Assembly: GCA_903907925.1 (NCBI GenBank)
Contig: CAIVQB010000143.1
Coordinates: 7,154-71,153 of the forward strand
Direction of reading: 5' to 3'
Source of the DNA: an uncultured Verrucomicrobiota bacterium
GTDB taxonomy: Bacteria > Verrucomicrobiota > Verrucomicrobiia > Limisphaerales > UBA9464
DNA length: 64,000 bases
The notes below the pieces were generated by a model. That model ran no database searches. It saw only the letters and a list, made by a program, of their open reading frames with translations, and was not told the origin of the DNA. The position numbers and the translations under genes were made by a program. This document shows, in pieces, positions 5,267 through 63,092 of the stretch. Position 1 is the first letter of the stretch. Every line of letters begins with the position of its first letter.

Positions 5267-5563
5267 TCAGGGGCGGGTCGAGAAGAACACCACCAACCCA
5301 ACCGCGAGGGATGCCACCGCCAGCAACCCGCCGGGCATGAACTTTTTCTTCCGGACAAATCGCATCGCGAAATACACGAAATGGATCGCCAGGAACGCCA
5401 GGGCCAGGTTGACGGGGCCTCCGAGGACCACGGTTAGAATCAGGGGGATCGCGAACAGGATCGAGGCGATGAGCGACGCCTTGCTCCCCGCCTTGAGAAA
5501 CCCGATCAGACCACCCACCAGGAGCAGCGCGAGATAAACCCAGATCCACGTATGCCAATTCAT
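5267..5563 (-). CDS. Small integral membrane protein, TMEM14/UPF0136-like
   Basis: Internal ATG (reverse complement at 5561-5563) of the 5267..5785 ORF gives 98 aa, almost entirely hydrophobic helices (MNWHTWIWVYLALLLVGGLIGFLKAG...). The longer ORF version would run across the divergent ppx promoter region. Confidence 0.6.
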   Translation of the reverse strand: MNWHTWIWVYLALLLVGGLIGFLKAGSKASLIASILFAIPLILTVVLGGPVNLALAFLAIHFVYFAMRFVRKKKFMPGGLLAVASLAVGLVVFFSTRP

Positions 5564-5680
5564 GAGAGCCCCAGCATAACGTATCTGTACGCCTCCGGCC
5601 ACCAACTTTCCCCCACGCCAGTGACGAGAGCCGAAACAGTCTTCCCCCCCATCGGATTCTACCGTCCAATCGGCGGACAC

Positions 5681-6607
5681 ATGCCGCTCCGCGCCATCAT
5701 CGATGTGGGCACCAATTCCGTGAAGATCCTGCTCGCGGAAGCCAACGGGCGGGAAGTGGTCCCCGTTTGGGAGAAGAGTGAACAAACCCGGCTGGGCCGC
5801 GGTTTTTACAATACACGGCGGCTCCAGCCGGCTGCGATTGAGGCCACCGCCGACGCGGTCGCCCGGTTCGCTGATCTCGCACGGAACTCAGGCGCGGTCT
5901 CCGTCCGCGTCGTGGCCACCTCCGCCGCCCGCGATGCGTTGAACGCGGATGCATTACTTGGCGCGATCCGATCCGCCGCCCAACTCGAAACCGAAGTCAT
6001 TTCTGGTGACACCGAAGCGGAATGGGCCTTCGCCGGAGTGGCTTCGACGCCCGGTTGGTCCCGCGAACGCATCCTGGTTCTCGATGTCGGCGGCGGCAGC
6101 ACGGAATTCATTCTCGGAACCGGCGGCCACGCTGAATTCCGCGCCAGCGTCGCGCTCGGCAGTGTCCGCTGGCTCGAACGGATCCAGCCCGGCGATGCCC
6201 CCGACGCCGCGGCTCTCGATGCCTGCCGGGCGGATCTGGCAGCCTTTCTCGAACGCGAAGTCGCCCCGTCGCTCAGTGCTGCGCTCCGTGCCGGGCCCCC
6301 ACCCGATCGCACCGTCGGCGTGGGCGGCAGCACCGCGCTGCTGGCCCTCATCCATCGCGGTCACCGTGACTTCGATCGGGACCTCATCGAATCAACCTGC
6401 TTCAGCCCCGACGACCTTTCCAGATTGGTCACCCGCCTGTGGTCGTTGCCACTCGATCAACGGCGTCAATTGCCCGGCCTCCCGCCCGAACGCGCCGACG
6501 TGATCCTGACCGGCGCAGCCATCTACGAAGCCGTGATCCGGACATTCCAACTCCCCGGCCTCGGCGTCAGCCTGCGCGGCCTCCGATTTGCGGCGTTGTT
6601 CTGTTGA
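5681..6607 (+). CDS. Ppx/GppA family phosphatase, short form (ASKHA ATPase-fold domains only)
   Basis: ATG at 5681 gives MPLRAIIDVGTNSVKILLAE, the typical Ppx/GppA N-terminus. 308 aa, with DVGGGSTEF and GVGGSTALL phosphate-binding loops. It has no HD domain. Confidence 0.85.
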   Translation: MPLRAIIDVGTNSVKILLAEANGREVVPVWEKSEQTRLGRGFYNTRRLQPAAIEATADAVARFADLARNSGAVSVRVVATSAARDALNADALLGAIRSAAQLETEVISGDTEAEWAFAGVASTPGWSRERILVLDVGGGSTEFILGTGGHAEFRASVALGSVRWLERIQPGDAPDAAALDACRADLAAFLEREVAPSLSAALRAGPPPDRTVGVGGSTALLALIHRGHRDFDRDLIESTCFSPDDLSRLVTRLWSLPLDQRRQLPGLPPERADVILTGAAIYEAVIRTFQLPGLGVSLRGLRFAALFC

Positions 6608-6625
6608 AGGAGGAAATGGACCGAA

Positions 6626-7153
6626 ATGAACGTTCTGGCGCTGTTCCTGACTCTCTTTTTGACGGTGCCGGTATTCGGAGCCGGGTTTCAGTTTCCTTCC
6701 CCTCGCTCCAGTCAGTCACCGGATGGAAGATGGAAATTGAGCTGCGAAACCTCCGAGGCTCAACCTGACGGTTTGCGGCATTCGATCGTGTTGACCGACA
6801 GCCACGGTGGAGTTTTCAAACTCTTAAGGTTTGGTCGCCATTGTGACGTACTTTGGTCTCGGGATAGTTCTCGGATCGCGCTGACCGATTGGTCAGGGAG
6901 CGACATTTCGGACATTCTGATTTGCTCGGCTACCAACTCGGTAGCGCTCACGTCACTCAGAGATCTTTGCGTCCGGTCAAGAACGTCCATTTCCTCGAAA
7001 GAGCTCAGCGGACATTCCTATTTTGAAGCCAGTAAGTGGCTAAACGGGCATCGCCTTCGGTTCAAGGTGTCTGGACATACAAATGAAAAGGTGTCTCGCA
7101 GTTTCAAACATCAATACGTATTCGATGCCGCACGAGGTTTGCTTGAGAATTGA
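6626..7153 (+). CDS. Hypothetical secreted protein (low-GC ORFan)
   Basis: 175 aa with an N-terminal signal-like segment MNVLALFLTLFLTVPVFGAG. Hand counts of sample lines give ~50% GC against clearly higher flanks. No motif I recognise. Confidence 0.6.
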   Translation: MNVLALFLTLFLTVPVFGAGFQFPSPRSSQSPDGRWKLSCETSEAQPDGLRHSIVLTDSHGGVFKLLRFGRHCDVLWSRDSSRIALTDWSGSDISDILICSATNSVALTSLRDLCVRSRTSISSKELSGHSYFEASKWLNGHRLRFKVSGHTNEKVSRSFKHQYVFDAARGLLEN

Positions 7154-7230
7154 GGAGCGAAGTAAGCCATTTCAACCGCCCGCCCCCGCAATTCGCTTGA
7201 AGCCGCATCGGTTGCGGAGATCAATCGGGG

Positions 7231-8580
7231 ATGTCGATTCCGAACGGTCTGCCTCGTCCCCGATTGGGATTCGGATTCCTGCTCATCCTGCTCGTCGCCT
7301 CCACGGTCCTGACCGCAGCCGCCCAGGAGAAACCCATCGCCTTCGTCGGCGGTCGCATCCTCCCCATCGCCGGTGACCCGATCGAGGATGGCGTCCTTCT
7401 GGTGCAGGGCGGGAAGATCCAGGCGGTCGGACCCAAAGCCTCGGTCACGCTGCCCGCTGACGCCGAACGTCGCGATGTGACGGGCAAGGTTCTGATGCCC
7501 GGATTGATCGACACCCATTCTCATATCGGAATCTACGGATCGGGCGTCAACGAACGTTCGGGACCCATCAATCCCGAGATGCGCGCCCTGGACGGTGTCG
7601 ACATCCGGGATCCGAGCCTCCAGCGCGCCCGCGCCGGCGGGATCACCACGGTCAACATTATGCCCGGTTCAGGCACCTTGATCGGGGGTCAGACCATCTA
7701 TCTCAAACTGCGCCAGGGGCGAACCATCGAGGATCTCACGATGCAGACCCGATCCAACCGCATCGCCGGCGGACTCAAGATGGCGAACGGCACCAATCCC
7801 CAGGGTGATCCCCCCTTCCCCGGCACCCGCGGCAAGGCGGCGGCCCTGGTGCGCGAACGCTACGTCGCGGCGCAAGTCTATCGGGACAAGATCGCCCGGG
7901 CCAAAGGCGATGCCGACAAGCTCCCTCCCCGCGACCTCGGCCTGGAATCACTGGGTGAGGTGTTGAGCGGTGACCGGGTGGTTCACCACCACACCCACCG
8001 CGCCGACGACATCATGACCGTCCTGCGACTGAAGCAGGAATTCGGATTCCGCCTCATTTTGCAGCACGTCAGCGAAGGCTACAAGGTGGCCGCTGAAATC
8101 GCCGCGGCCGGCGTTCCCTGCTCGGTGATCGTCATCGATAGCCCGGGCGGGAAGCTGGAGGCCCGCGACATGGATTGGAAGACCGCGGGAGTCCTCGAAC
8201 GCGCCGGGATTCTGGTGGGATTCCACACCGACGATCCGGTGACCGATTCCCGATTGTTCATGCGATCCGCCGCCCTCGCCGTCCGGGCTGGAATGACTCG
8301 AACTGGTGCGCTGAAGGCCCTCACCCAGGCAGGTGCCAGGATGTTGGATCTGGAAGAACGGACCGGAACGCTGGCAGCGGGCAAGGACGCCGATTTCCTC
8401 ATTCTCTCCGGCGATCCGCTGAGCGTTTACACGCATGTGGAGCAAACCTGGGTGGAAGGCGCCAAGGTGTTTGACCGGACTGATCCCAAGGACGCGGTGA
8501 TTGCCGAGGGCGGATACGGTGCCGGCAATCCCCGGGCCGCAAACCTCTGCTGCTTCGGAAACCACGGCGGTGACCAATGA
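7231..8580 (+). CDS. Secreted amidohydrolase-superfamily metallo-hydrolase
   Basis: 449 aa. Signal-like N-terminus LLILLVASTVLTAAAQ, and the amidohydrolase strand-1 motif PGLIDTHSHIG (HxH intact). Confidence 0.85.
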   Translation: MSIPNGLPRPRLGFGFLLILLVASTVLTAAAQEKPIAFVGGRILPIAGDPIEDGVLLVQGGKIQAVGPKASVTLPADAERRDVTGKVLMPGLIDTHSHIGIYGSGVNERSGPINPEMRALDGVDIRDPSLQRARAGGITTVNIMPGSGTLIGGQTIYLKLRQGRTIEDLTMQTRSNRIAGGLKMANGTNPQGDPPFPGTRGKAAALVRERYVAAQVYRDKIARAKGDADKLPPRDLGLESLGEVLSGDRVVHHHTHRADDIMTVLRLKQEFGFRLILQHVSEGYKVAAEIAAAGVPCSVIVIDSPGGKLEARDMDWKTAGVLERAGILVGFHTDDPVTDSRLFMRSAALAVRAGMTRTGALKALTQAGARMLDLEERTGTLAAGKDADFLILSGDPLSVYTHVEQTWVEGAKVFDRTDPKDAVIAEGGYGAGNPRAANLCCFGNHGGDQ

Positions 8581-12567: not shown

Positions 12568-15500
12568 GTGAGTTTTCATCTCCACACCAGCAACCGGCTC
12601 GACCGGCTCGCCCAACAGCTCGCGGAGATCCTCCGCATCCCGCAAGCCTCCCCGTTCACGCCGGAGACTGTCGTGGTGCAGAGCCTCGGGATGAGCCGCT
12701 GGCTGAAGCTGGAACTCGCCCGCCATCTTGGGATCTGCGCCCACGTCGCGTTTCCCTTCCCGCGCGCCTTCATCGACCAATTGCATCACGATCTCGTTCC
12801 CGACCCACTCAACGGCGATCTCCTGAGCCGGGAAACGATGCAATGGCGCCTGTTTGGTCTGCTCGGCTCTCTTTCGGATTCCGCAATCTTCTCCGAGCCG
12901 CGCCGGTATGTGGAGGGTGGCGACGCACGAAAACGGCTCCAACTGGCGACACGGGTGGCTCATCTGTTCGATCAATACCTCGTCTTCCGTCCCGACCTGA
13001 TCGAGCGGTGGGATTCGAACAGGGTTGAGTCCGACAATCCGACGAAACAACCGACTCCAGGCGAACGCTGGCAGTCGGAGCTCTGGCGGATGATGACCGC
13101 CGGCACAACCGCACGGCATCCCGCACGGAGGCACGCCGATCTGCTCCAGCGCCTGTCCACACCACCACCTCCGTCACTGCCTTCCCGCATCGCGGTGTTT
13201 GGCGTTTCGGCCCTTCCGCCGGTTTATCTGGATCTGTTCGCTGCTCTGGCGGAAACGATCGAGGTTCATTGTTTCCTCCTGCAACCGTGCGCGGAGTGGT
13301 GGGGTGATATCGTCACCGGACGGGAAACCGAACGCACGCTGCGGCGGATGGGTCGGCGGGCCGGCGATGCGGCGGAGGTTCACCTCGAACCAGGTCATCG
13401 ATTGCTGGGATCTCTGGGCACCCTGGGTCGCGATTTTCTTAAGCTGCTGTACGAACACACCAACCCGATTGAAGTCGCCGACTTTGCCGCACCCTCCGGC
13501 GACTCGCTGCTCCACCAGCTCCAACGCGATCTTCTCGAACTCAAGGACGGCAACCCGGGTGCGCGTCGGATCGTTGCCGCCGGAGACGATTCGATACGGC
13601 TCCATGTCTGCCATAGTCCGCTGCGGGAACTGGAGGTTCTGCACGACCACCTGCTCGACTGGTTCCAGCGGGATCCCACGCTGACCCCGCGGGACGTCCT
13701 CGTGATGGCACCCGATCTGGCGACCTATTCTCCGTTGGTGCACGCCGTCTTCGATGCGCCCGGTGAGGAGAATCAACGCATTCCCTACAGCCTTGCCGAT
13801 CAGGGACCGCTCCACACCGGCGGCATTTCTGAAACCTTCCTGAACCTGTTACGGCTCGCAAAAGGTCGTCTTGGTGTCACCGCCGTACTGGACCTGCTCG
13901 AATGCGCGGCGGTTCGCCAGCGCTTCGGTTTCGCCGAGGGCGATCTCCCGGTGCTGCGCCATTGGGTGACCGAGACGCGCATCCACTGGGGACGCGACGC
14001 GGCACATCGCGCCACATTCGGTCAGCCCGCCACCGACGCCCACACCTGGCGCGCGGGGCTGCAACGCCTGCTGCTCGGTCATGCGATGTCCGACGACGAC
14101 CAGCGCCTGTTTCAAGGGATCCTGCCCTTTCCCGACATTGAAGGTTCGATCGCCCAAACGCTGGGTCAGTTCGCGGGATTCATCGAACAACTCACCCGCA
14201 CGATCACGCAACTGGAGCAGCAGTATTCTCCCAGCGACTGGGTTCCGGTGCTGCTCGCCGTCGTCGACGCCTTCTTTTCAGCCGAATCCAACCAGGAAGA
14301 GGAACTCAAACAGCTCCGGCGACGTCTGGACGAACTTCGCCGACCGGCACTGGCCGCGGGAATCGCGGAACCGATCGATCTCGCCCTGCTGCTCGATCCG
14401 CTCACTGCGGCACTGGATGAGGATCTTCACGGGGCCGGCTTTCTGACCGGCGGCGTCACCTTCTGCGCCCTGAAACCGATGCGCAGCATTCCGTTCCGGG
14501 TGATCTGCCTGCTGGGCATGAACGACGGAGCCTTTCCGCGCGTTTCGCCGCACCTGAGTCTCGATCTGATGGCGGCGGATCCGCGTCTCGGCGATCGTTC
14601 CACCCGGGACGACGACCGCTACCTGTTCCTGGAAACGGTGATCAGCGCCCGCGATCGACTGCATCTCAGCCACGTCGGTCAGAGCCAGCGTGACAACCGT
14701 CCGATCCCGCCCAGCGTGGTCGTCAGCGAAGTGTTCGATCACCTGGATGAGGTCTTTGCGCCCGCGGAGTCCGCTGAAAAGATCAGTGAGGCCGCCCTGA
14801 TCGTGCGCCACCGTCTCCATGCGTTCAGTCCGGCCTATTTCACGTCGGACCCCGGGTCCGCATTGTTCTCCTATTCCTCAGAAAACAGCGCGACCGCCAC
14901 TCACGCCCTGGCGGCGCGGTTGGATGCCCTGCCCTTTCTTCCACAAGCCCTGCCCGAACCCGGACCGGAACGCCGGCAGGTGACGTTGAAGCAGCTCGCC
15001 GATTTTCTCTGTCATCCCGCGCGGTTTCTACTGCGGGAACGCCTCCAGATCGAACTGCCGCGTTCCACCGAAACCCTCGATGACGACGAACCTCTTTCCC
15101 TGGATGCGCGCGAGTCCTACAACCTGAAGCAGGACCTGGTCGCCTGGCGGCTCAAGGGCGGTGATTCGGCGGCGTTTGGCGCTGTGCTGACTGCGGAAGG
15201 CCGCCTCGCCCCCGGTCAACCGGGCGTGATGGAATTCCGCGATCTACGCGATGCCGCCGACCAATTCCGAAACCGGCTCGGTGAGATCCATCCCGGTGCG
15301 CCCGTTCGGGTTGACCTTGCGCTGGGCGACTTCCAACTGACAGGTCGGCTGGTTCCACAACGCAATGCCGGACTTCTCCACTACCGCTGCGCGACCCTCA
15401 AAGCTGCGGACCGCCTCCGTCTCTGGGTCGAACACCTCGCCTGGAATCTCACCGCCCTCTCCGAATCTTCGCTCGTCACTTCAACTCTGGTCGCCGAGGA

Positions 15501-15855
15501 TGTTCGACTCGTCTTTCGGCCCGTACCCGGGGCCAGCCGGTATCTTCAGGCGCTTCTCGACCTCTATTGGCGCGGCTTGCAAAGTCCGCTCCGATTTTTC
15601 CCCCGCACCGCGCTGGCCTTCATCGAGGCTGAACGAAAAGCCGCGGCTGGCGGGTCCCGTTCCAAGAAGACGCCATTGGAAATCGCGCGACCTCACTGGA
15701 TCGGCAGCGAGCTCAGTTCCATGCCCGCGGAAGGCGACGACGCCTGGTTCCGGCTCTGTTTCCGCCAGGAGGCCGATCCCCTCACCGATGAGTTCCAATC
15801 CCTGGCACGGGCCGTGTTCGGGCCGTTGCTGGATCATTGCGGGGAGGCGTCATGA
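12568..15855 (+). CDS. recC: Exodeoxyribonuclease V gamma subunit RecC
   Basis: 1095 aa with a GTG start. N-terminus SFHLHTSNRLDRLAQQL is RecC-like, and it heads a recC-recB-recD operon. Confidence 0.9.
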   Translation: MSFHLHTSNRLDRLAQQLAEILRIPQASPFTPETVVVQSLGMSRWLKLELARHLGICAHVAFPFPRAFIDQLHHDLVPDPLNGDLLSRETMQWRLFGLLGSLSDSAIFSEPRRYVEGGDARKRLQLATRVAHLFDQYLVFRPDLIERWDSNRVESDNPTKQPTPGERWQSELWRMMTAGTTARHPARRHADLLQRLSTPPPPSLPSRIAVFGVSALPPVYLDLFAALAETIEVHCFLLQPCAEWWGDIVTGRETERTLRRMGRRAGDAAEVHLEPGHRLLGSLGTLGRDFLKLLYEHTNPIEVADFAAPSGDSLLHQLQRDLLELKDGNPGARRIVAAGDDSIRLHVCHSPLRELEVLHDHLLDWFQRDPTLTPRDVLVMAPDLATYSPLVHAVFDAPGEENQRIPYSLADQGPLHTGGISETFLNLLRLAKGRLGVTAVLDLLECAAVRQRFGFAEGDLPVLRHWVTETRIHWGRDAAHRATFGQPATDAHTWRAGLQRLLLGHAMSDDDQRLFQGILPFPDIEGSIAQTLGQFAGFIEQLTRTITQLEQQYSPSDWVPVLLAVVDAFFSAESNQEEELKQLRRRLDELRRPALAAGIAEPIDLALLLDPLTAALDEDLHGAGFLTGGVTFCALKPMRSIPFRVICLLGMNDGAFPRVSPHLSLDLMAADPRLGDRSTRDDDRYLFLETVISARDRLHLSHVGQSQRDNRPIPPSVVVSEVFDHLDEVFAPAESAEKISEAALIVRHRLHAFSPAYFTSDPGSALFSYSSENSATATHALAARLDALPFLPQALPEPGPERRQVTLKQLADFLCHPARFLLRERLQIELPRSTETLDDDEPLSLDARESYNLKQDLVAWRLKGGDSAAFGAVLTAEGRLAPGQPGVMEFRDLRDAADQFRNRLGEIHPGAPVRVDLALGDFQLTGRLVPQRNAGLLHYRCATLKAADRLRLWVEHLAWNLTALSESSLVTSTLVAEDVRLVFRPVPGASRYLQALLDLYWRGLQSPLRFFPRTALAFIEAERKAAAGGSRSKKTPLEIARPHWIGSELSSMPAEGDDAWFRLCFRQEADPLTDEFQSLARAVFGPLLDHCGEAS

Positions 15856-18800
15856 CTCCGTCGCTCTTCCATCTTCCCACCACTCCATTGCCGCTCGGCC
15901 CGACGGTGATTGAGGCGAGTGCCGGTACTGGGAAAACCTTCACCCTCGCCGGATTGTTCCTCCGGCTGCTGCTCGAACACGGACTATCGCACCGCTCCAT
16001 TCTCATCGTCACCTACACCGAGGCGGCGACCGAAGAACTCCGCGGCCGGCTCCGGGCGCGGCTCGTCGAGGCCGATGCCGCCTTCGCCACTGATTCGGAA
16101 TCGAGTGATCCACTTTTCAGGGAATTGCAACGCCGGTTGGTGGTGAACGATCCGGGGCTGGTCCACGCCCGCGCCACCCTGCAACAGGCATTGACCCATT
16201 TCGACGAGACGCCCGTTCGGACGATCCATGGGTTCTGCCAGCGGGTGTTGCGCGACCACGCCTTCGAGAGCGGGAGTTTCTTCGACATGGAATTGGTGAC
16301 CGACCCCAGACCGCTTCTGGACGAGGTGGTCGCGGATTGGTGGCGCAGCCGTTTCGACACGGCCACCGACGCTGAAACGGGGTTCGCCCTCACCGCTGGA
16401 CTCACACCGAATCGCCTCATTCGAATGCTCGGGGAAACACAGCGGCATCCGGGCATTGAACTGCACGCCTGTGTCACGCCCGGGGAGTTGCCGCGGCTCC
16501 GCACCGTCCTGGTCGATCGATTCGCCGCCGCTGCCGAAACATGGCGTCGGGAGTCTGGAACGATTCGTTCCTTTTTCGGAACCGGAATCACCTGGGGCAA
16601 CAGGCCCTACAATCTTTCGACCGAAATGGACTCCCGGTTTGCCCAACTGGAGTCCTGCTTTGGCGGCACTGCGGGCAGTGAGGATTTTCGCGTCTTCAAC
16701 GACTTCACCCCGACGACATTGGAATCTCGCCGGAACCAGAAACGGAAGAATCAGATCGTTCCCTCCCATCCTTTCTTCGACCAGTGCGCCGCATTGATCG
16801 ATCTCCAGCGCCAACTACACGCCTCCTGGCAGCTCGATTTCAACGCCTGGGCCACGCTCGAACTGCAACGCCGCAAACAGGAACGCAAGGTCCAGTCGTT
16901 CGACGACCTGCTGACCCGACTGGATTCCGCCCTGACCGGCGAAGGTGGAGAGACCCTCGCTTCGACAATGCGCGGCCTGTATTCCGCGGCGCTGATCGAC
17001 GAATTCCAGGACACCGACCCCGTCCAGTGGCGCATCTTTCGGCGGCTGTTTGGCGCGGCCGATCAACGCCTGTTTCTCATCGGCGATCCCAAGCAGGCGA
17101 TCTACGGATTCCGCGGAGCCGACGTGTTTACCTACCTCGATGCCGCCGCCGGTGCGGCCCACGCTCATACGCTCGGCACGAACTGGCGTTCGGAATCCGG
17201 ATTGGTGACGGCGGTGAACGGACTGTTTCAACCCCATCCGTGTCCGTTCGTGGTCGGTGAAATCGCCTTTCGCGCCGTGGCTTCCGGAGGCCGGGCGGAC
17301 GTCAATCCACTCGTTGAATCGGGCCACCGACTCCCACCGCTGCAGCTCTGGTTCTGGGCGGAAGAGGAACCGCTCTCCAAGACACGTGCCGAACCGCAAT
17401 TGGCGGAAATGACGGCCACGGAAATCGTCCGTCTACTCGCACCCGCCACGAATACACGGATCGGCACGCGCACCCTCCGGCCGGGCGACATCGCGGTGTT
17501 GGTGGAGAATCATCGGCAGGCGGAACACGTCGCGGCGGCCCTGCGACAGCGCGGAGTTCCAAGCGTTCAACAAATCCAGCGGGGCATTTTTGCCAGCGAT
17601 GAGGCGGCGGAATTGACAACGTTGCTGGCGGCAATTGCGGAACCGTCGGCCGGACGTCGCCTTCGCGCCGCGCTCGCCGGCTATATCCTCGGATTGGATG
17701 CGCCACGGATCGCCGCCCTCGACTTGGACGAAATGGGTTGGGTCGCCTGGATCGAACGCTTCCACGGCTGGCTGGAACGCTGGAACACCGCCGGTTTCTT
17801 GCCGATGTTCCGCGAGCTGTTGCAGTCCCAACAAGTCCGCCGTCGCTGGCTCTCGCGGACCGACGGCGAACGTCGCCTCACCAACCTGCTGCACCTCGCC
17901 GAGCTTTTGCAGGATGCCGCCATCAAGCGCCGGCTGGGTGTGAACGGGCTTCGCCAACATCTTGCCCACCGCTGCGCGAATGCCGCGGAGGCCGGTGACG
18001 AGGAATTGCTGCGCCTGGAGCGCGACGACAATGCCGTCCAGTTGGTCACCATTCATCGCAGCAAGGGTCTCGAGTATCCGGTGACCTTCTGTCCGTTCAC
18101 CTTCCGGCCGGCCGAATCCTCCCGATCGAATAGCTCGGAGGATCTGGTCCTCTGTCACAATCCTGCCGCTCGGGGTCAGATGATCGGTGACCTGGGCTCG
18201 TCCCAACGCGAGCTCCACGAGCGCCTCGCCGCCACCGAACGCCTGGCGGAAAACGTCCGACTGCTGTACGTGGCGCTGACCCGAGCGCGCAATCGCTGTT
18301 ACTTCGCTTGGGGCCATTTCAGGGATCTCACGACAGCCGCCGGCTGGTTGTTCTTCCGTCCATCCATCGACGGAACGATTGCCCCGCTGGAAGCGCTCTC
18401 GGCGGCGGCTGGTGACCGAACCGCAGACAGCACCCGGGCGGTTGTAGATCGATACGCTGGGGAATGTGATTCCGTCAGCGTTGGGCCGCCTCCGATTCCC
18501 AATGCGATTCAATTCTCCACCCGGGTCGAATTGGAATCCGCCCTCGTCGCGCGGCGATTCACTGCGACTCTTCAACAGGTGTGGCGCTCGGCCAGTTTCT
18601 CCTGGCTCACGGCAGGCCGGCGTGACGAGGAACCGGATTATGACGGCGAATCCGTGACTCAGCCCGACGAGGCCGCCACTCCCGAACCGGGCAGCATCCA
18701 TGCCTTCCCACGCGGCACCCGGGCGGGCGTCTGCCTGCATCAGGTGTTCGAACGGATTGATTTTGCCGGCAGGAATCCCGCGGATTGGGCCGCCACAATC

Positions 18801-19448
18801 GAACTGCAACTCCGTGAAAATGGGATCGATGAATCCTTCGCTCCGGCCGTGGAACAGATGGTGCAATGGACGTGCCACGCACCGCTGGAATCGGGGCCGG
18901 AATCGGGTTTCTGCCTGGCGGACACCGGCGCGACGGAACGCCTCGTCGAATTGGAATTCTGTTTTCCGCTGCACCGGGTGACGCCGGGAGACCTGCGGGG
19001 CGTGCTGGTGCGACACGGTGCCACTTTGCCATCGGGATTTCCGCACGCGCTGGAGCGACTGGAATTCAATCCGGTTGAGGGCGTTCTGCGCGGTTTTATC
19101 GATCTGGTGTTCCGCGCCCGCGGGCGCTGGTGGCTGGTGGATTGGAAATCGAACTGGCTGGGTCCGAGCAGCGAAGATTACACACCAGCGGCGGTGGCTT
19201 CAGAAATGGCCGCTCATCTCTATCCGCTCCAATACCTGCTCTACACCCTCGCCCTCGACCGCTGGCTTTCGCTGCGGGTGCCGGGGTATTCCTATGAGCG
19301 GGATTTCGGAGGCGTCCGGTACCTTTTTCTTCGCGGCATCGATCCCGACCGACCCGGGCACGGCATTTACTCCGACCGGCCCTCACCGGAACTCCTTCGA
19401 GATTTGGGTGACCTCCTGCTGATGCCCGCCACGGAGGCAACGCGATGA
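15852..19448 (+). CDS. recB: Exodeoxyribonuclease V beta subunit RecB (helicase-nuclease)
   Basis: ATGA overlap with the recC stop (ATG 15852). UvrD-type motifs EASAGTGKTFT, IDEFQDTDP and SIHRSKGLEYP-like (TIHRSKGLEYPV), plus the C-terminal PD-(D/E)XK nuclease motif GFIDLVFRARGRWWLVDWKSN. Confidence 0.92.
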   Translation: MTPSLFHLPTTPLPLGPTVIEASAGTGKTFTLAGLFLRLLLEHGLSHRSILIVTYTEAATEELRGRLRARLVEADAAFATDSESSDPLFRELQRRLVVNDPGLVHARATLQQALTHFDETPVRTIHGFCQRVLRDHAFESGSFFDMELVTDPRPLLDEVVADWWRSRFDTATDAETGFALTAGLTPNRLIRMLGETQRHPGIELHACVTPGELPRLRTVLVDRFAAAAETWRRESGTIRSFFGTGITWGNRPYNLSTEMDSRFAQLESCFGGTAGSEDFRVFNDFTPTTLESRRNQKRKNQIVPSHPFFDQCAALIDLQRQLHASWQLDFNAWATLELQRRKQERKVQSFDDLLTRLDSALTGEGGETLASTMRGLYSAALIDEFQDTDPVQWRIFRRLFGAADQRLFLIGDPKQAIYGFRGADVFTYLDAAAGAAHAHTLGTNWRSESGLVTAVNGLFQPHPCPFVVGEIAFRAVASGGRADVNPLVESGHRLPPLQLWFWAEEEPLSKTRAEPQLAEMTATEIVRLLAPATNTRIGTRTLRPGDIAVLVENHRQAEHVAAALRQRGVPSVQQIQRGIFASDEAAELTTLLAAIAEPSAGRRLRAALAGYILGLDAPRIAALDLDEMGWVAWIERFHGWLERWNTAGFLPMFRELLQSQQVRRRWLSRTDGERRLTNLLHLAELLQDAAIKRRLGVNGLRQHLAHRCANAAEAGDEELLRLERDDNAVQLVTIHRSKGLEYPVTFCPFTFRPAESSRSNSSEDLVLCHNPAARGQMIGDLGSSQRELHERLAATERLAENVRLLYVALTRARNRCYFAWGHFRDLTTAAGWLFFRPSIDGTIAPLEALSAAAGDRTADSTRAVVDRYAGECDSVSVGPPPIPNAIQFSTRVELESALVARRFTATLQQVWRSASFSWLTAGRRDEEPDYDGESVTQPDEAATPEPGSIHAFPRGTRAGVCLHQVFERIDFAGRNPADWAATIELQLRENGIDESFAPAVEQMVQWTCHAPLESGPESGFCLADTGATERLVELEFCFPLHRVTPGDLRGVLVRHGATLPSGFPHALERLEFNPVEGVLRGFIDLVFRARGRWWLVDWKSNWLGPSSEDYTPAAVASEMAAHLYPLQYLLYTLALDRWLSLRVPGYSYERDFGGVRYLFLRGIDPDRPGHGIYSDRPSPELLRDLGDLLLMPATEATR

Positions 19449-21298
19449 AACGCGAACTCAACGCAGCGTCGGAGCCCGGTGCCCTCGCACCGGCCAACAT
19501 CGCCGGGTTTTCCGAACTGGACCGGCAGTTTGCTCAACTGCTGCAAACCCTGGCGACAACTCCCCATTCCGACCTCTTCCTCGCTGCCGCGCTGACCAGT
19601 CATCGCCGGGCCGAAGGTCACACCTGCCTTGATCTGGCCACGACGGCGGGATGTTTTCTTCACGAAGAGTTGCCGGAGGTCGAGGAGAGTGCCGCGAGGT
19701 TTCCTTCGCTCGACGTATGGGAAGAGATTCTTCGGCAGAGTGGTGTCGTCGGGCGGCCGGGAGATTTTTCACCGCTGATTCTCGATGACGCTCACCGTCT
19801 CTATCTCCACCGATACTGGCACTACGAACAGCGGCTGGCCGGATCGATCCGGAATCGCGCGCAGGAAACCATTCTCTGCGATCCGACAAAGCTCCGCGCG
19901 ATCCTCGACCGGTTGTTCCCCGGCGGCACGGATTCCATCGACTGGCAAAAGATCGCCGCCTTCACTGCGGCCACCCGGCGGTTGACCCTCATTACCGGCG
20001 GACCGGGAACCGGCAAGACTCGGACCGTGGTCTGGCTTCTCGCCGCCTTGCAAGAGCAGTCCGAGGACCTCCCGCTGCGAATCGCCTTGTGCGCACCCAC
20101 CGGCAAGGCGGCCGCGCGCATCGCCGAATCCATCCGCAAGGCGAAGACCGAACTGCCCTGCTCCGATGCGCTCAAATCCCGCTTGCCCGACGAAGCGACG
20201 ACCCTACACCGGTTGCTGGGGTCGATCGCAAACTCGGCCCGTTTCCGTCATGATGCCGCCAACCCACTCGCCGCGGATGTGGTGGTGGTGGACGAGGCCA
20301 GCATGGTCGACCTGGCGCTGATGGCCAAACTGTTGGACGCCTTGCGACCGGAGGCGCGATTGATCCTCGTGGGTGACAAGGATCAACTGGCCTCCGTTGA
20401 AGCGGGCAATGTTCTCGGTGAGCTCTGCGGCGCGGGTGCAGAACGGCAGCATTCGGTCGCGTTCGCCGAACAGGCCCGGCGCATGACCGGCATCCAGATT
20501 CCCAACGAACAAATCCAACCCACGGTTCCCGTGCTCGCCGACTGCATCGTTGAACTGAGGAAGAACTGGCGATTTGGATCGGCGGACGGACTCTCGCAAC
20601 TCAGCCGGGCGGTCAACGCCGGTGAGTCTGCCGAGGTGATGCAGCTCCTGCGCGGAGCGGGTTCCCTGTGGCGTCCCCTTCCACCAGCCCGACGATTGGA
20701 GTCCGAGCTTCGCGATCCGATTCTGGCGGAGTTCGGACCGGCCATACGGGGACGCGATCCCGCGACCGCCCTGGTGGCTTTGAATCGGTTTCGTATTCTT
20801 TCCGCGGTACGGCGGGGTCCGTTTGGCGTCGAACAATTAAACGCGCTCTGCGAACGCACTCTGGAACGTGAGGGATTCATTCAGAGGAACGGTCCGTGGT
20901 ATCCAGGTCGACCGGTCCTGATCACCCGAAACGATCCCGAGCTCCGATTGTTCAACGGCGATATCGGTGTGGCGTTGCCGGATGCATCGGGAAGTCTCCG
21001 GGTCTATTTCACTGATTCCGCCGGTGAGATTCGCGGTATTCCGACGGCGCGCCTTCCAGATCATGAGACCGCATTTGCGATGACAGTGCACAAAAGCCAG
21101 GGATCGGAATTCGACCGGGTTCTGCTGATGCTCCCCGATCGAGACAACCCCCTCCTGACGCGGGAATTGATCTACACCGGTCTCACCCGCGCGCGATCCA
21201 GCGTCGAACTCTGGGCCAACGAACCCATCCTGACCGCCGCCATCCAACGCCGTGTGGAGCGTGCCTCCGGCCTGCACGATGCCGTGTGGAATACATGA
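19445..21298 (+). CDS. recD: Exodeoxyribonuclease V alpha subunit RecD
   Basis: ATGA overlap with the recB stop. 617 aa with GGPGTGKT, VVVDEASMVD, LVGDKDQLASVEAG and MTVHKSQGSEF. Confidence 0.92.
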   Translation: MKRELNAASEPGALAPANIAGFSELDRQFAQLLQTLATTPHSDLFLAAALTSHRRAEGHTCLDLATTAGCFLHEELPEVEESAARFPSLDVWEEILRQSGVVGRPGDFSPLILDDAHRLYLHRYWHYEQRLAGSIRNRAQETILCDPTKLRAILDRLFPGGTDSIDWQKIAAFTAATRRLTLITGGPGTGKTRTVVWLLAALQEQSEDLPLRIALCAPTGKAAARIAESIRKAKTELPCSDALKSRLPDEATTLHRLLGSIANSARFRHDAANPLAADVVVVDEASMVDLALMAKLLDALRPEARLILVGDKDQLASVEAGNVLGELCGAGAERQHSVAFAEQARRMTGIQIPNEQIQPTVPVLADCIVELRKNWRFGSADGLSQLSRAVNAGESAEVMQLLRGAGSLWRPLPPARRLESELRDPILAEFGPAIRGRDPATALVALNRFRILSAVRRGPFGVEQLNALCERTLEREGFIQRNGPWYPGRPVLITRNDPELRLFNGDIGVALPDASGSLRVYFTDSAGEIRGIPTARLPDHETAFAMTVHKSQGSEFDRVLLMLPDRDNPLLTRELIYTGLTRARSSVELWANEPILTAAIQRRVERASGLHDAVWNT

Positions 21299-21307
21299 TC
21301 GCAAATT

Positions 21308-21609
21308 GGAGGGCCTGGTTCCACCCGCGCCCCATTTGCGTTTTTGAAGCGGGAAAGTCGGCCGCGGTTTCTCAGCACTGAGAATAGCCCAGGCGTTCAC
21401 GCCTGGGATACGCGCTCATCGAAGAAGTTGAGTCCCTTCGGGGACGGCAGAGTCTGTCGTCCCAACGGGACTTGCGTCATTTCTTCTCGGCCACCCCGGC
21501 CTGAAGTCCGGGGCTATTTTCGCGGAGACTTCGGTTCGCGGGTGGGTGCCGTGAAAATCCTTTCGCCCGGTTCGCGATGGATTGGGGCGCGGGTGGAACC
21601 GCGCCCTCC
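21308..21609. mobile_element. MITE-like structured repeat, copy A (~302 bp)
   Basis: The ends GGAGGGCCTGGTTCCACCCGCGCCCCA and TGGGGCGCGGGTGGAACCGCGCCCTCC are reverse complements (~29-bp TIR). The interior shares long identical blocks with copy B (e.g. GGGACGGCAGAGTCTGTCGTCCC, GGGACTTGCGTCATTTCTTC, CACCCCGGCCTGAAGT). No transposase. Confidence 0.7.
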
Positions 21610-21659
21610 ACCGTGCCGATGTTTCCACGGGTCATTCGGACGACGCGAAATCCCGCGCT

Positions 21660-22844
21660 TCAATGGGTCGGCGCGGGCCCATTCCCGTGAATGGAACTCA
21701 ACGCGTCGGTCGCCAACTGACGCAGCAACACCCGGGGATGATGGGTCATCCGTTCCAACGCGGGGACGGCGGCGGCGGCCGGTGGTCCAATCTCTGCCAA
21801 CGCCCGGAGGGACCCGAGCTGGGACCGTTGGACACCATGTTCGATGTCACAGGCCAGCGCTTCGATCATCGGTGGTGTCGTGGCCTTGCGGATGCGCCAC
21901 AACACCACGGCAGAGGCCCCGTGAAACATCTTGAGGTGCGGATCCGCCAGATCAGATTCGAGCTTCGGAACAGCGGCGTGCGCGGCGGGACCCAGGCGGG
22001 CGTACAAGCGGTGCGCGTAGTCACCCGTCCAGGCGGAGTTCGTTCGCTGCTGCTCCAGCATGCAGGCGACGGCTTCGTCGGCAAATTCCGGAGCGACAAA
22101 ACCGAGGGCGAAGGCCGCGTTGGGACGGACCTTCTTGTCCGGATCCGCGAGGTGCCGGCGCAGGATCGGCGCGGCGGCGCTCGCGTTCGTTCCATATCGC
22201 GCAATGGCCCGGGCCGCAAAGAGTCGGTCGTCTCCACGTTTTGTATCCAATCCAGCGATGAGGACTGGAATCAGCAATCCCGACGGAATCGTTCCAGCTC
22301 GGGCATCGATACTGGCGACTTGAATCCGCACCGAGTCGCTGGTCACGGCGAGCATGCGAGTAAGGTTGGAGATATAAGTCCCGTCCGGCGGGTGAATCTT
22401 GTTCCACGCAAACGATCGCATTTCAGCAGGATCAGAATAGGCGTAGTTGGTATAAATGCGGAAAACAGCGGGTTCCACGATACGAGCTCTTGGTCCGAGT
22501 AGTCCGAGGACCCGCAATGCCTGGGGTCGGCGGTCGGTCTGTCTGTAGACCGCCGATCTCATCCATTCTCTCGCAAGTGGAACATTCTGCCAGATCCAGG
22601 ATTCGGCAGGCTTCATCACACCTTCACCCCAATCCAGTTCCGCCGCGATCCGGCGAATGGCCCGATCATCGAGTGACGGAAGTTCGGCCTGAATGACCTC
22701 GTCCTCGATCGCCGCATCGGGAAGTGTGGGAGACAGCAGTGCCTCGATCCGCGGGTCAGGCCGCCTCTGCAGCCACAGCATCAGGAATAGGACCGCAAAA
22801 ACGGCAACCGTCCCGGCAACCATGCAGCGCCAGCGGGTGAACAT
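21660..22844 (-). CDS. Membrane-anchored HEAT-repeat protein
   Basis: ATG at 22844 gives MFTRWRCMVAGTVAVFAVLFLMLWL (N-terminal TM helix). HEAT-like repeats follow (DPDKKVRPNAAFALGFVAPE, LRALAEIGPPAAAAVPAL...). The TTG at 22901 is an alternative start. Confidence 0.7.
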   Translation of the reverse strand: MFTRWRCMVAGTVAVFAVLFLMLWLQRRPDPRIEALLSPTLPDAAIEDEVIQAELPSLDDRAIRRIAAELDWGEGVMKPAESWIWQNVPLAREWMRSAVYRQTDRRPQALRVLGLLGPRARIVEPAVFRIYTNYAYSDPAEMRSFAWNKIHPPDGTYISNLTRMLAVTSDSVRIQVASIDARAGTIPSGLLIPVLIAGLDTKRGDDRLFAARAIARYGTNASAAAPILRRHLADPDKKVRPNAAFALGFVAPEFADEAVACMLEQQRTNSAWTGDYAHRLYARLGPAAHAAVPKLESDLADPHLKMFHGASAVVLWRIRKATTPPMIEALACDIEHGVQRSQLGSLRALAEIGPPAAAAVPALERMTHHPRVLLRQLATDALSSIHGNGPAPTH

Positions 22845-22911
22845 GAGGCCACGATAGCCACGGAGCCCATCAGGTTCCACAACCAGGTGAAGAGCGTGCA
22901 AACCTCAGCGT

Positions 22912-23210
22912 GGAGGGCGCGGTTCCACGCGAGCCCCATCTACGTCTTTGTTGCGGGAAAGACGGCCGCGGTTCCTCGCGACATGGCCCAGGCGTTCACG
23001 TCTGGGTTGCAGGTTCACCGGGGAATTCGAGTCCCGACCGGGACGGCAGAGTCTGTCGTCCCTGGCGGGACTTGCGTCATTTCTTCCCCAACACCCCGGC
23101 CTGAAGTTCGGGGCTATTTTCGCAGCAGCCGCGGTGCGTGGGTTGCAAGCGGTAGAAATCCTCACGTCCGGTTCGCGATTGATTGGGGCGCGGGTGGAAC
23201 CGCGCCCTCC
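22912..23210. mobile_element. MITE-like structured repeat, copy B (~299 bp)
   Basis: Same TIRs as copy A (GGAGGGCGCGGTTCCACGCGAGCCCCA ... TGGGGCGCGGGTGGAACCGCGCCCTCC), same orientation, and roughly three-quarters identical to copy A by eye. Confidence 0.7.
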
Positions 23211-23233
23211 GATTTTACGGCCCGTTCGAAATG

Positions 23234-60344: not shown

Positions 60345-60986
60345 ATGTACATCCCGTCCGCCTATGCCCCGGATCTTCCCGGCACCGCCGCCGCCGTGAT
60401 GGCCCGTTTTCCGTTCGCCACCCTGGTCAGTCAGGACAACGGCCACCTCTGCGCCACCCACGTGCCGCTGAGATTCGAAGCGAAGGCCGGAACCTACGGA
60501 TCCCTCTTCGGCCACGTCGCGCGCGCCAATCCCCAGGGGCTCATCCTCCAGCCCGACCGCGAAACACTCGCCATCTTCCACGGCCCGCACGCCTACGTTT
60601 CCCCGACGCTCTACGCCCAGCATCCGGCAGTTCCGACCTGGCATCACGTTACGGTTCATGCCACCGGATTCCCGCGAGTGCTGACCGATCCCGCCGAAAT
60701 TCTCCGGCACCTTGCCGCGCTGGTCGGTGATTTCGAGTCGGGGCCCAATTCCTGGTCGATGAACGGCATTCCGACCGAATACCTCGATCGCATGCTGGGC
60801 GGCATTGTGGCCTTCGAACTCGTCCTCTGTCGGATCGAAACCCAGTGCAAGCTGGGCCAGAAACGTTCCGACACCGACCGGACTCAGGTCGCTCAGGGGC
60901 TGCGCGCCACCGGAAACCCCATGGACGCCGCGGTCGCCGATTGGATGGAATCCTTTCCCTCAGCGCCGGCCCTTCTCCAACCATGA
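60345..60986 (+). CDS. paiB: FMN-binding negative transcriptional regulator PaiB family
   Basis: ATG at 60345 gives MYIPSAYAPD...FPFATLVS. HGPHAYVSPTLY and KLGQKRS are typical PaiB segments. Confidence 0.8.
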   Translation: MYIPSAYAPDLPGTAAAVMARFPFATLVSQDNGHLCATHVPLRFEAKAGTYGSLFGHVARANPQGLILQPDRETLAIFHGPHAYVSPTLYAQHPAVPTWHHVTVHATGFPRVLTDPAEILRHLAALVGDFESGPNSWSMNGIPTEYLDRMLGGIVAFELVLCRIETQCKLGQKRSDTDRTQVAQGLRATGNPMDAAVADWMESFPSAPALLQP

Positions 60987-61462
60987 ATCCCGACGCCTCA
61001 TCATTGGAATGGGAGCACGACGGCTTCCTGGTCTCCACCGATCCAGCCCGATTGGACGTCGCGGCGATTCACGCCTTCCTCTCGAGATCCTACTGGGCCG
61101 CCGGTATTCCGCTCGAAGTCCTCGAACGTTCGCTCCGAAACTCTCTGTGTTTCGGCCTGTATACGCCCGGTTCTCTGCTTCGGCCGCAGATCGGCCTCGC
61201 CCGGGTGGTGACCGATCGCGCGACCTTCGCCTATGTGTGCGACGTGTATGTCCTTTCGGAATATCGCGGTCGTGGCCTGGGCAAATGGCTGTTGTCGTGT
61301 TTCCAATCCCATCCTGATCTTCAGGGATTGCGGCGTTTCAATCTGGTGACCCGCGACGCCCATTCGCTCTACGCGCCGTTGGGATTCCGCCCGATCGCGC
61401 ACCCCGATCGCTACATGGAGAAACTGGACCCCGATGTTTACAAACGGGCCGCATCCGCGTGA
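60983..61462 (+). CDS. GNAT family N-acetyltransferase
   Basis: ATGA overlap with paiB. Acetyl-CoA binding motif VLSEYRGRGLGKWLL. 159 aa. Confidence 0.85.
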   Translation: MNPDASSLEWEHDGFLVSTDPARLDVAAIHAFLSRSYWAAGIPLEVLERSLRNSLCFGLYTPGSLLRPQIGLARVVTDRATFAYVCDVYVLSEYRGRGLGKWLLSCFQSHPDLQGLRRFNLVTRDAHSLYAPLGFRPIAHPDRYMEKLDPDVYKRAASA

Positions 61463-61508
61463 ACTCCCTCCCCATTCGCATCATGCGCACGTTTCCCAAT
61501 CCTGTTCG
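61432..61508 (+). repeat. 77-bp direct repeat, copy 1 (GNAT 3' end plus a truncated argC start)
   Basis: Matches 61968-62044 except for two substitutions and a fully different 18-nt central spacer. Contains a pseudo-start, ATG 61483, giving MRTFPNPVRHDRR-stop. Confidence 0.85.
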
Positions 61509-61542
61509 GCACGACCGTCGATAAAACCAGGTTGAGCACCGA

Positions 61543-61830
61543 CTACTTCGGTCGAATGATGCCTATACCGCTTTTCGCAAATTGGATCGACAGAGCGACG
61601 TACACAAAAGCGATGCCAGCCCAAGCATAATAAGCGGCATCGTGCTTTCTTTTTTCGGCCAGCGTCACGTAAACCGTCTTGTTATAGAATCCCTCGATTG
61701 GGACCGTTCGATTTTCCCTTACTTGCGGAACACTCGGCATGTTACGAGTGTAATACTCAGTTAATGAATTGGCGTACCAATAGATTCCGAAAAACAATAC
61801 AACCAACGATATTAACAGATATCTTTTCAT
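61543..61830 (-). CDS. Small two-TM membrane protein (low-GC ORFan) inside the inserted segment
   Basis: 95 aa. Hydrophobic helices at both ends (YLLISLVVLFFGIYWY and AAYYAWAGIAFVYVALSIQF). Local GC is ~40-50% by hand count. Confidence 0.55.
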   Translation of the reverse strand: MKRYLLISLVVLFFGIYWYANSLTEYYTRNMPSVPQVRENRTVPIEGFYNKTVYVTLAEKRKHDAAYYAWAGIAFVYVALSIQFAKSGIGIIRPK

Positions 61831-61967
61831 TGCGGCCAGTTACCAAACGACGCATTCGATCTTCCAAATCCGCCACCGGGCCTCGCGTCAGCAGTGAACC
61901 CTCCCTAATCGTTCTTGGCAACACGGACCCCGGGCCACGAATCCTGCCAATCGGACGAGCAGAAGCT

Positions 61968-62044
61968 CGATGTTTACAAACGGACCGCATCCGCGTGAAC
62001 TGAACCGCCTTTCGAAACATGCGCACGTTCCCCAATCCTGTTCG
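61968..62044 (+). repeat. 77-bp direct repeat, copy 2 (GNAT 3' remnant plus the genuine argC start)
   Basis: See copy 1. Here the ATG at 62019 continues into full-length argC. Confidence 0.85.
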
Positions 62045-63092
62045 CGTCGCCATCGTCGGAGCCTCCGGGTATTCCGGCGAGGAACTGGTCCGGCTGCTGT
62101 TGAATCATCCCCACGCCCGGCTCGTGGCCGTGACCTCGCGGCAATACGCCGGACAGCCCCTGGCACAGATTTTCCCGCGCTTCGCCAGTCACCCCTTGTC
62201 GCGCACGCTGCGGTTCACCGAACCCAACGCCGAAACGCTCGCACGCGAGGCCAACGTGGTCTTCCTCGCCCTGCCGCACGGCGTTGCTGCTGAATTCGCC
62301 ATCCCATTGATCGCCGCCGGCGCGGTGGTCATTGATCTCAGCGCCGATTTCCGCCTGCGCAGCGCAGCGGTGTACCAGGAATTCTACGCTCACGAACATC
62401 CGGCACCCCACCTTCTGGCACAGGCCGTGTACGGTCTTCCCGAGGTCTATCGCGATCGCATCCGCGAATCGTCGCTGATCGCTTCGCCCGGATGCTATCC
62501 AACGAGCATCCTTCTCCCCACCCTGCCCTTGTTGAAAGCCGGTCTCATCAAGTCCTCCGGAATCATCGCCGATTCCATGAGCGGCGTGAGTGGTGCGGGT
62601 CGGAAAGCGGAACTGGATTATCTCTTCTGCGAATGCAACGAAAGCGTCCGGCCCTACGGCGTTCCCAAGCACCGACATCTTTCCGAAATCGAACAGGAAC
62701 TGGCGATCGCCGCCGGTGAACCGGTCACGATCCAATTCACGCCCCATCTGATTCCGGTGAATCGCGGCATCCTGACCACGTTGTACCTGGCCCCCACCCG
62801 GCATTTCAGTGACCCAGCCTCGACGGCGGCGCTCCACGACGACATCGCGGCTTGTTACCGTGCAGCCTATTCCAACGAACCGTTCGTCCGCGTACTCGAA
62901 GGAAAATCACTGCCCGACACCAAAAACGTCGTCGGCACCAACACGCTGGAACTCGCCTGGCGACTGGATCCCCGCACTGGACGTCTCCTGGTTATGAGTG
63001 CCGAGGATAACATCGTCAAAGGCGCCAGCGGTCAGGCCGTGCAAAGCCTGAACATCGTGTGTGGTTTTCCGGAGACGGCGGGATTGGTCTGA
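62019..63092 (+). CDS. argC: N-acetyl-gamma-glutamyl-phosphate reductase
   Basis: VAIVGASGYSGEELVRLL, catalytic-Cys context SPGCYPTS, and C-terminus DNIVKGASGQAVQSLN. 357 aa. Confidence 0.93.
   Translation: MRTFPNPVRVAIVGASGYSGEELVRLLLNHPHARLVAVTSRQYAGQPLAQIFPRFASHPLSRTLRFTEPNAETLAREANVVFLALPHGVAAEFAIPLIAAGAVVIDLSADFRLRSAAVYQEFYAHEHPAPHLLAQAVYGLPEVYRDRIRESSLIASPGCYPTSILLPTLPLLKAGLIKSSGIIADSMSGVSGAGRKAELDYLFCECNESVRPYGVPKHRHLSEIEQELAIAAGEPVTIQFTPHLIPVNRGILTTLYLAPTRHFSDPASTAALHDDIAACYRAAYSNEPFVRVLEGKSLPDTKNVVGTNTLELAWRLDPRTGRLLVMSAEDNIVKGASGQAVQSLNIVCGFPETAGLV

Follow-up and report, generated by a model that had tools for sequence, protein, structure and literature searches.

In the 64,000-nucleotide (nt) stretch of DNA analysed here (the window; contig CAIVQB010000143.1 of an uncultured Verrucomicrobiota bacterium), a 459-bp insert separates two neighboring housekeeping genes, a GNAT acetyltransferase gene and argC, and is flanked on either side by a 77-nt copy of the junction between them. 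The insertion is real and specific to one lineage of freshwater Verrucomicrobia, and the gene gain is recent. Judging from its homologues and their gene neighborhoods, the one gene that the insert carries, ORF95 (an open reading frame of 95 codons), is most likely an orphan immunity gene, related to small genes that lie directly behind genes ending in a glycine-rich domain. Moreover, the two junction copies are different natural alleles. Homology-driven acquisition from a related lineage fits these observations best, with a probability that we estimate at roughly 0.55, and overall the locus works like an orphan immunity islet gained by recombination. The features of the locus are as follows, in window coordinates; c1 and c2 denote the two junction copies and GC the fraction of guanine plus cytosine.

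60983-61462, plus strand: GNAT acetyltransferase gene, intact (Pfam Acetyltransf_7 and Acetyltransf_1); its last nine codons and stop lie inside c1.
61432-61508: junction copy c1, resident-type allele, with spacer TCCCTCCCCATTCGCATC (17/18 to L092/L093).
61483-61524, plus strand: dead argC start, 13 codons (MRTFPNPVRHDRR) closed by a stop, beginning in c1 and extending into the insert; read from the sequence.
61509-61967: the 459-bp insert, missing from all related lineages examined, as seen from empty sites in relatives; GC 0.49.
61531-61537, minus strand: GTTGAGC (GCTCAAC on the ORF95 strand), 5 nt past the ORF95 stop; the sole integron core-site-like 7-mer here, and a weak lead only.
61543-61830, minus strand: ORF95, 95 residues with two membrane helices, probable orphan immunity gene by homologues, contexts and structure model; GC 0.44.
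61831-61967, minus strand: 137-nt segment upstream of ORF95, without detectable homologue; GC 0.60.
61968-62044: junction copy c2, foreign-type allele by spacer comparison, with a GNAT-tail remnant (61968-62000), spacer TGAACCGCCTTTCGAAAC and the true argC start.
62019-63092, plus strand: argC (N-acetyl-gamma-glutamyl-phosphate reductase), intact (Pfam Semialdhyde_dh and Semialdhyde_dhC_1).

A lineage-specific insertion between GNAT and argC

An earlier reading of this DNA, made from the sequence only (the sequence-only reading), had placed the two repeats at 61432-61508 and 61968-62044. Both are found at exactly those positions as direct copies of 77 nt each, offset by 536 nt with 459 bp between them, and they are identical at 67 of 77 positions. 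Apart from one unrelated pair of about 226 nt, no direct repeat within 5 kb in the window is longer. Each copy comprises three blocks: the last nine GNAT codons plus the stop (33 nt, one difference), an 18-nt spacer, and the start of argC (26 nt, one difference), with the argC ATG lying 51 nt into both copies, as had been claimed. The dead argC start in c1 and the GNAT-tail remnant in c2, also described in that reading, can both be read from the sequence; the argC homology of c1 stops at 61508, where all relatives instead go on with CGTCGCCATCGTCGG. The two spacers had been called entirely different, which is wrong, as they agree at 10 of 18 positions.

Because 77 nt of the junction are present on either side of the insert, both host genes are intact. 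In this arrangement c1 completes GNAT, and c2 supplies the argC start codon together with its usual 51 upstream bases. The ArgC protein shares 80-100% amino-acid identity with the ArgC proteins of relatives. The locus thus presents a clean natural gene gain, with a defence-type gene in a 20-nt gap between two essential-pathway genes and neither of them damaged.

We reached relatives of this lineage through GNAT homologues at 89, 85, 74 and about 71% amino-acid identity, plus two variants more than 90% identical. In 15/15 related lineages examined, GNAT and argC are directly adjacent in that order. The sequence-only reading had predicted an empty site in related genomes, and this was found: all 15 of these Verrucomicrobia lineages, the closest at about 90% nucleotide identity, carry one junction copy (contigs L004-L015, L073 and L090-L093). 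The gap from the GNAT stop to the argC ATG is 20 nt in the closer relatives and widens to as much as about 37 nt in the most distant. An ancient stable structure, which the same reading had named as the outcome that would overturn its interpretation, is rejected by the empty site in every relative examined.

The same arrangement was recovered from five other samples at 99.97-100% identity (L001, L002, L003, L125 and one ENA/NCBI contig, the last known from gene calls only); some of these five assemblies may be re-assemblies of the same reads. All contigs that encode this exact GNAT protein carry the insert. These observations bear on whether two co-occurring strains were stitched together at their common junction during assembly. 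Such stitching has some circumstantial footing, in that the DNA comes from a metagenome, the same sample types also contain relatives whose junction blocks are nearly identical, and L003 and L125 stop at the same base, 62130. It is, however, contradicted by the contigs from the five other samples, which hold the insert and both flanks, and by the consistent presence of the insert beside the exact GNAT protein. In addition, the k141 names of two contigs imply that the 77-nt copies are shorter than the 141-nt assembly word, or than a single read, so that they would have been spanned with unique sequence on both sides. We regard an assembly artefact as extremely improbable.

Two observations concern contig structure within argC. 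Four short contigs, from four assembly accessions, end within 2 nt of one another (L003 and L125 at 62130, L092 and L093 at the position corresponding to 62132); each of the pairs L003/L125 and L092/L093 may represent a single sample assembled twice. The shared ends near 62130 suggest a branch in the assembly graph, with co-occurring strains or lineages sharing the argC start and then diverging. Separately, argC in L090 (1098-1541; a contig from ERZ28573524) agrees with the window over about 224 nt (75 codons) before continuing into unrelated sequence, reflecting either a chimeric contig or another argC interruption.

The insert had also been described as low in GC. This is true of ORF95, at 0.44, and not of the 137 nt at 61831-61967, which at 0.60 are host-like; the whole insert has a GC of 0.49 against 0.625 for the window. 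GC at third codon positions (GC3) is 0.51 in ORF95 versus 0.62-0.81 in host genes, and the 400-nt bin at 61601-62000 has the lowest GC among all 160 bins of the window. The second-lowest bin, 6801-7200 (0.507), falls in the gap that separates a Ppx/GppA-family gene (5552-6607) from an amidohydrolase gene (7231-8580). We detected no significant fold in the insert (z about +0.8) or in 61831-61967, and no Rfam match to the region at E <= 1 save a chance snoRNA-like one; the whole window has no Rfam match at gathering score. Searches of the insert DNA against the rest of the window, the fetched loci, and plasmid and phage records returned no match except the coding motif of the ORF95 family.

Two junction alleles and the route of acquisition

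The spacers of the two junction copies resemble those of different relatives. The c1 spacer matches that of L092/L093, the closest relatives (about 90% nucleotide identity in GNAT), at 17/18 positions, and the c2 spacer matches that of L004 (about 82% nucleotide identity in GNAT) at 16/18 and that of L090/L091 at 14/18. Six of the eight spacer differences between c1 and c2 are the L004 state, and the single difference in each coding block is a polymorphism also present among relatives. In total, c1 and c2 differ at 8/18 spacer positions versus 2/59 positions of the coding blocks (Fisher p = 7e-5). Among nine empty-site relatives, variable columns number 6/33 in the tail, 12/18 in the spacer and 5/26 in the argC start, and conserved blocks around a divergent spacer are therefore the normal variation of the junction across the clade. 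The sequence-only reading had used conserved flanks and a divergent spacer to argue against a simple target-site duplication. That exclusion holds, by virtue of the two natural alleles; that the pattern itself is the clade-wide norm had been missed.

Since the copies match different lineages better than they match each other (17/18 and 16/18, versus 10/18 between them), the allele matrix rejects an in-place duplication followed by drift. One junction copy descends from another lineage of the clade. The scars of a related-lineage origin are still visible, in that the flanking junction copies are different alleles. It is unusual for a housekeeping gene junction to be duplicated with two different alleles, yet known processes can account for this.

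We infer that the insert arrived by recombination. In the reading that we favor, a 459-bp foreign fragment would have been placed in the 20-nt GNAT-argC gap; since the copies are different natural alleles, it would have come in with the junction of another lineage already attached, and the host's homologous recombination would have put it in place, with the near-invariant coding blocks serving as homology. Homology-driven insertions with duplication are known from homology-facilitated illegitimate recombination (PMC3240628) and from transformation-generated merodiploids (PMC3784515). Genes for RecC, RecB and RecD lie in the window at 12568-21298.

The sequence-only reading had gone further and proposed Campbell-type integration of a small circular DNA. 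As that proposal predicts, direct repeats of the homologous segment flank the insert and two spacer allele types are present. A single crossover of a 536-bp circle inside the argC-start block would give the exact observed product, leaving the resident tail and spacer in c1 and the incoming tail and spacer in c2. A linear fragment could lead to an identical outcome, by homologous recombination on the argC side with the other side joined illegitimately or via the 26-nt block, and one-sided recombination of this kind, like a later conversion, also predicts two spacer alleles. The same product is further expected from transfer of an already duplicated insertion, or from a later short conversion of one copy. 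The homology-driven part of the proposal is therefore retained, and the circle specifically is a tentative suggestion that we would not favor. As in Campbell or suicide-plasmid-type insertion, direct repeats flank the incoming DNA, the repeats may be resident/incoming hybrids, and host recombination functions suffice (the RecBCD genes being in the window). The locus differs from such insertions in that homology is confined to 77 nt, and neither a circle nor a donor was seen.

Several points weigh against acquisition by recombination with a related lineage. The identical runs common to c1 and c2 measure only 11-17 nt, and for RecA-driven crossing-over such runs are short. The insert was found in no lineage that could have been its donor. 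Homology stops sharply at both inner repeat borders, and a pure recombination route needs an earlier event. Finally, the assignment of c1 as the resident copy draws on short contigs (700-1500 nt) of one closest relative, itself only about 90% identical. In a comparison for homology past the 77 nt, TCGTTCTTGGCAACACGGACCCC (61908-61930) resembles the GNAT tail marginally (11-25 of 300 shuffles were as good), and immediately left of c2 8/15 positions agree.

Sharp homology borders at both inner repeat ends are as expected for a target duplication, and they bring into play the main rival, in which a staggered break or a replication template switch duplicated the 77 nt in place and a short recombination tract from an empty-site relative later overwrote the c2 spacer. 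Two further observations fit this scheme: the dead pieces (the argC start in c1 and the GNAT tail in c2) are undecayed, and junction alleles are common across lineages, with spacers matching at 17/18 and 16/18 despite 82-90% overall identity, so that exchange at the locus does happen. Because an empty-site donor has no homology to the insert, however, the patch needs its left crossover inside the 33-nt tail block, and the scheme requires two rare events at one spot rather than one. To our knowledge, moreover, no bacterial insertion mechanism yields a 77-nt target duplication. We consider this alternative unlikely.

Insertion of a transposon or insertion sequence (IS) fails as an explanation, given the 77-nt heteroallelic duplication, the absence of terminal inverted repeats and the absence of a transposase-family open reading frame. 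No other copies of the insert were found in the window, in plasmids or in phages. The earlier remark that no integrase or transposase lies nearby was borne out across the window, where none of the 46 long open reading frames matches integrase, transposase or Rhs families (some of them have no Pfam match of any kind).

An extension of homology-driven acquisition is that the 536-bp unit, comprising the insert and one junction copy, may be a minimal mobile cassette without an enzyme of its own that uses the unusually conserved junction as a homing arm. Relying on host recombination only, such a unit could excise and then reinsert at this junction in any clade member. Each integration would rebuild both neighboring genes, and the immunity gene would in this way spread across species boundaries. 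We rate the idea as improbable; if true, it would mean that single genes move between species without a mobility enzyme of their own.

ORF95, its family and the glycine-rich domain

ORF95 is a real gene. It had been described as encoding two transmembrane segments, and hydrophobic segments are indeed present at about residues 4-23 and 66-89. An AlphaFold model of the protein (mean predicted local distance difference test score, pLDDT, 93.8) shows a helix at residues 2-30, a beta-hairpin at 43-55 (strands 43-46 and 52-55) and a second helix at 57-86; a fold search with this model against the PDB gave nothing below E = 1. Among 5.8 billion proteins ORF95 has no close relative other than itself, and it is present only in this context. 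A full HMMER scan of 1.84 billion representatives identified 35 homologues at E <= 1e-3, which range from 52 to 162 residues and mostly from 85 to 121. The family layout (alignment A1) comprises an N-terminal hydrophobic helix, a core of the form YYTRxMPxxPQxxxGRTxPxxVNYGKTVYVTxxEK, and a C-terminal hydrophobic helix. We located family loci with an 11-sequence alignment, and in most of the 16 loci checked the GC of the family gene is below that of its surroundings.

At 11 loci, which we call toxin-linked (L094, L095, L101-L104, L113-L116 and L119), the family gene lies 3' of an upstream gene on the same strand, the two overlapping or lying a few nt apart. The 11 upstream genes all end in one conserved glycine-rich domain of about 110 residues (alignment A3, mean column identity 63%), with the signature ...DLAGPF...GSQGQ..GGGF..G.GGG....QTYIHPLW. 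An Rhs tip is visible in two of the 11 loci. In L095 (241-5022), a 1593-residue protein with an RHS_repeat match (1.4e-69) carries the glycine-rich domain after ...DPFGLW (a DPxGL motif, behind which Rhs proteins have their toxin domains), and also contains a C39 peptidase domain and TPR repeats; in L102 (3-3995), an RHS_repeat-positive protein of at least 1331 residues has the glycine-rich domain at its end. Two tandem ORF95-family paralogues (310-585 and 582-944) lie 3' of the toxin gene in L094. As a separate observation, the family member in L095 is followed by a perfect 24-nt tandem duplication (5537-5584) and by an IS200/IS605-type (Y1) transposase gene (5741-6658).

A place directly 3' of a variable toxin tip is the usual mark by which a cognate immunity gene is recognized. 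Since the family genes sit where cognate immunity genes sit, and no toxin is attached in the window, ORF95 is best read as an orphan immunity gene, one that would protect the inner membrane against a membrane-acting Rhs toxin delivered by a competitor. The glycine-rich domain is probably an undescribed membrane-acting toxin domain, and may plausibly be non-enzymatic in the manner of Tse5, an Rhs pore-forming toxin of Pseudomonas aeruginosa that is paired with Tsi5, an immunity protein with two predicted transmembrane regions (PMC9637101). As in Tse5/Tsi5 (PMC9637101, PMC10684867), the toxin domain stands at the Rhs tip and the small partner has two predicted membrane helices. The resemblance is one of architecture only, as neither the glycine-rich domain nor the ORF95 family has sequence similarity to any PDB chain, and the L095 Rhs protein differs further in carrying the C39 peptidase domain. 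Together, the two families, a glycine-rich Rhs C-terminal domain and a two-helix membrane partner, appear to form a new toxin-immunity pair that has gone undescribed.

Two findings count against an immunity role. About half of the family loci have no adjacent toxin gene, and neither the ORF95 family nor the glycine-rich domain has a match in Pfam, NCBIfam, PHROGs, PADLOC or the PDB. ORF95 could instead be another kind of small membrane protein, for example a toxin accessory or export factor, or an unrelated stress protein, without any link to competition; the frequent absence of a toxin gene and the lack of similarity to any named immunity family both sit comfortably with this view. It accounts poorly for the 11 loci in which the family gene is directly 3' of, and often overlaps, a gene with the same C-terminal domain family. 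Tandem paralogues, as in L094, and lone copies in cassette arrays speak in the same direction, both being typical of immunity genes, and the pairing of a two-helix protein with a glycine-rich, probably membrane-acting toxin parallels Tsi5/Tse5. We judge a role apart from immunity to be somewhat unlikely.

Lone family copies occur in L098, L100, L105 and L107, where they follow a glutamine-amidotransferase-like or a beta-lactamase-family gene, or lie among IS elements. No junction duplication was found around the other orphan members (L098-L100, L105, L107, L118, L120 and L122). ORF95 shares several properties with orphan immunity genes described in T6SS (type VI secretion system) arrays of Vibrio cholerae (PMC5361080) and among the acquired interbacterial defence genes of Bacteroidales (PMC12247911, PMC10470768): it is a lone gene of a family that follows toxin tips, its GC is below that of the host, its distribution is patchy, and horizontal gain without the toxin and recombination with relatives are invoked in both cases. 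For the V. cholerae genes, acquisition through homologous or homology-facilitated illegitimate recombination was discussed (PMC5361080). In contrast to those genes, which lie 3' of a toxin cluster or next to a recombinase, ORF95 is on its own between housekeeping genes; the host junction on its two sides is duplicated, with two alleles, and its immunity role is putative.

The 137-nt segment upstream of ORF95 was considered as a possible 3' remnant of a toxin gene. One of its frames reads GGFTADARPGGGFGRSNASFGNWPQ and ends in a TGA that overlaps the ORF95 ATG. This frame weakly resembles the C-terminus of the glycine-rich domain, with p of about 0.04-0.05 in shuffles for pairwise and end-anchored alignments, and the profile hidden Markov model scores it at background level; a toxin remnant is thus unsupported and a weak lead only. 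The GC pattern, 0.60 upstream and 0.44 in the gene, recalls the toxin-linked loci L095 and L104, and is not proof of such a remnant.

A further set of family members, in L108-L112 and L121 from soil metagenome, lies within arrays of 370-450-nt cassettes with a single open reading frame each, and one cassette per array is an ORF95-family gene. The cassettes are separated by elements of about 125 nt with the form YYYTAAC...GTTAG, paired inner arms and an extra-helical base, which is the architecture of integron attC sites, and the family members in all of these loci are bounded in this way. Example arrays span 2936-4354 in L110 and 1437-4863 in L121; no integrase is present on the fragments. Both families circulate in soil, peat and lake bacteria beside Rhs genes, in integron-type arrays and as lone orphans.

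The insert resembles these cassettes in having a single small open reading frame and a length of 459-536 bp. By site-specific recombination, the 536-bp unit could have been moved as a non-autonomous cassette (cis-mobilisable, or an integron cassette at a secondary site) by a recombinase acting in trans, with the 77-nt junction as its attachment site. The unit is cassette-sized, the core-site-like GCTCAAC lies 5 nt past the ORF95 stop, and integrative elements are well known to have attachment sites in which the end of the target gene is the version of a previous host. Yet none of the 46 long open reading frames in the window matches a recombinase family, and the insert yielded neither an attC-like hairpin nor a partner core site, nor any terminal inverted repeat. 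Its borders are not at GTT core sites of the G/TT type, and, in contrast to the L110 cassettes, ORF95 is preceded by a 137-nt leader. Integron insertion, moreover, leaves its target unduplicated, whereas the target here is duplicated. We find a site-specific route decidedly improbable. An integron cassette in the strict sense fails at this site, where there is one core-like 7-mer only, with no hairpin or partner site; the window contains no attC, attI or intI.

Junction sequence and a second repeat in the window

In their DNA sequence, and at synonymous sites as well, the last 33 nt of GNAT (61432-61464) and roughly the first 100 nt of argC are far better conserved than the rest of GNAT, which is only 71-89% identical in amino-acid sequence. 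The conserved blocks (61432-61464 and 61483-61508) are also found in L004-L012 and L090-L093. It is possible that the junction blocks hold an overlapping signal for argC expression. A candidate sigma-70 promoter in the GNAT tail (TTTACA-N17-TGAACT) was rejected, as it fails a consensus scan, and a terminator scan of the junction and insert region found none; the insert likewise gave no promoter consensus. Just 5' of the argC ATG, at 62010-62017, lies a perfect 8-nt palindrome, TTTCGAAA, which is absent from all relatives and results from two changes, specific to c2, that turn GCATC into GAAAC at the spacer's 3' end.

The window contains a second direct repeat, of about 226-230 nt, at 21384-21612 and 22983-23213. 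Its copies lie 1600 nt apart, share three blocks that are 81-89% identical, and bracket a minus-strand HEAT-repeat gene (21660-22901) just after recD. They match no Rfam family. Both copies adopt a common multi-hairpin fold (-92 kcal/mol on the plus strand), and most substitutions between them keep the pairs (G-C to G-U, on the plus strand); the repeat may be an undescribed structured RNA or repeat element.

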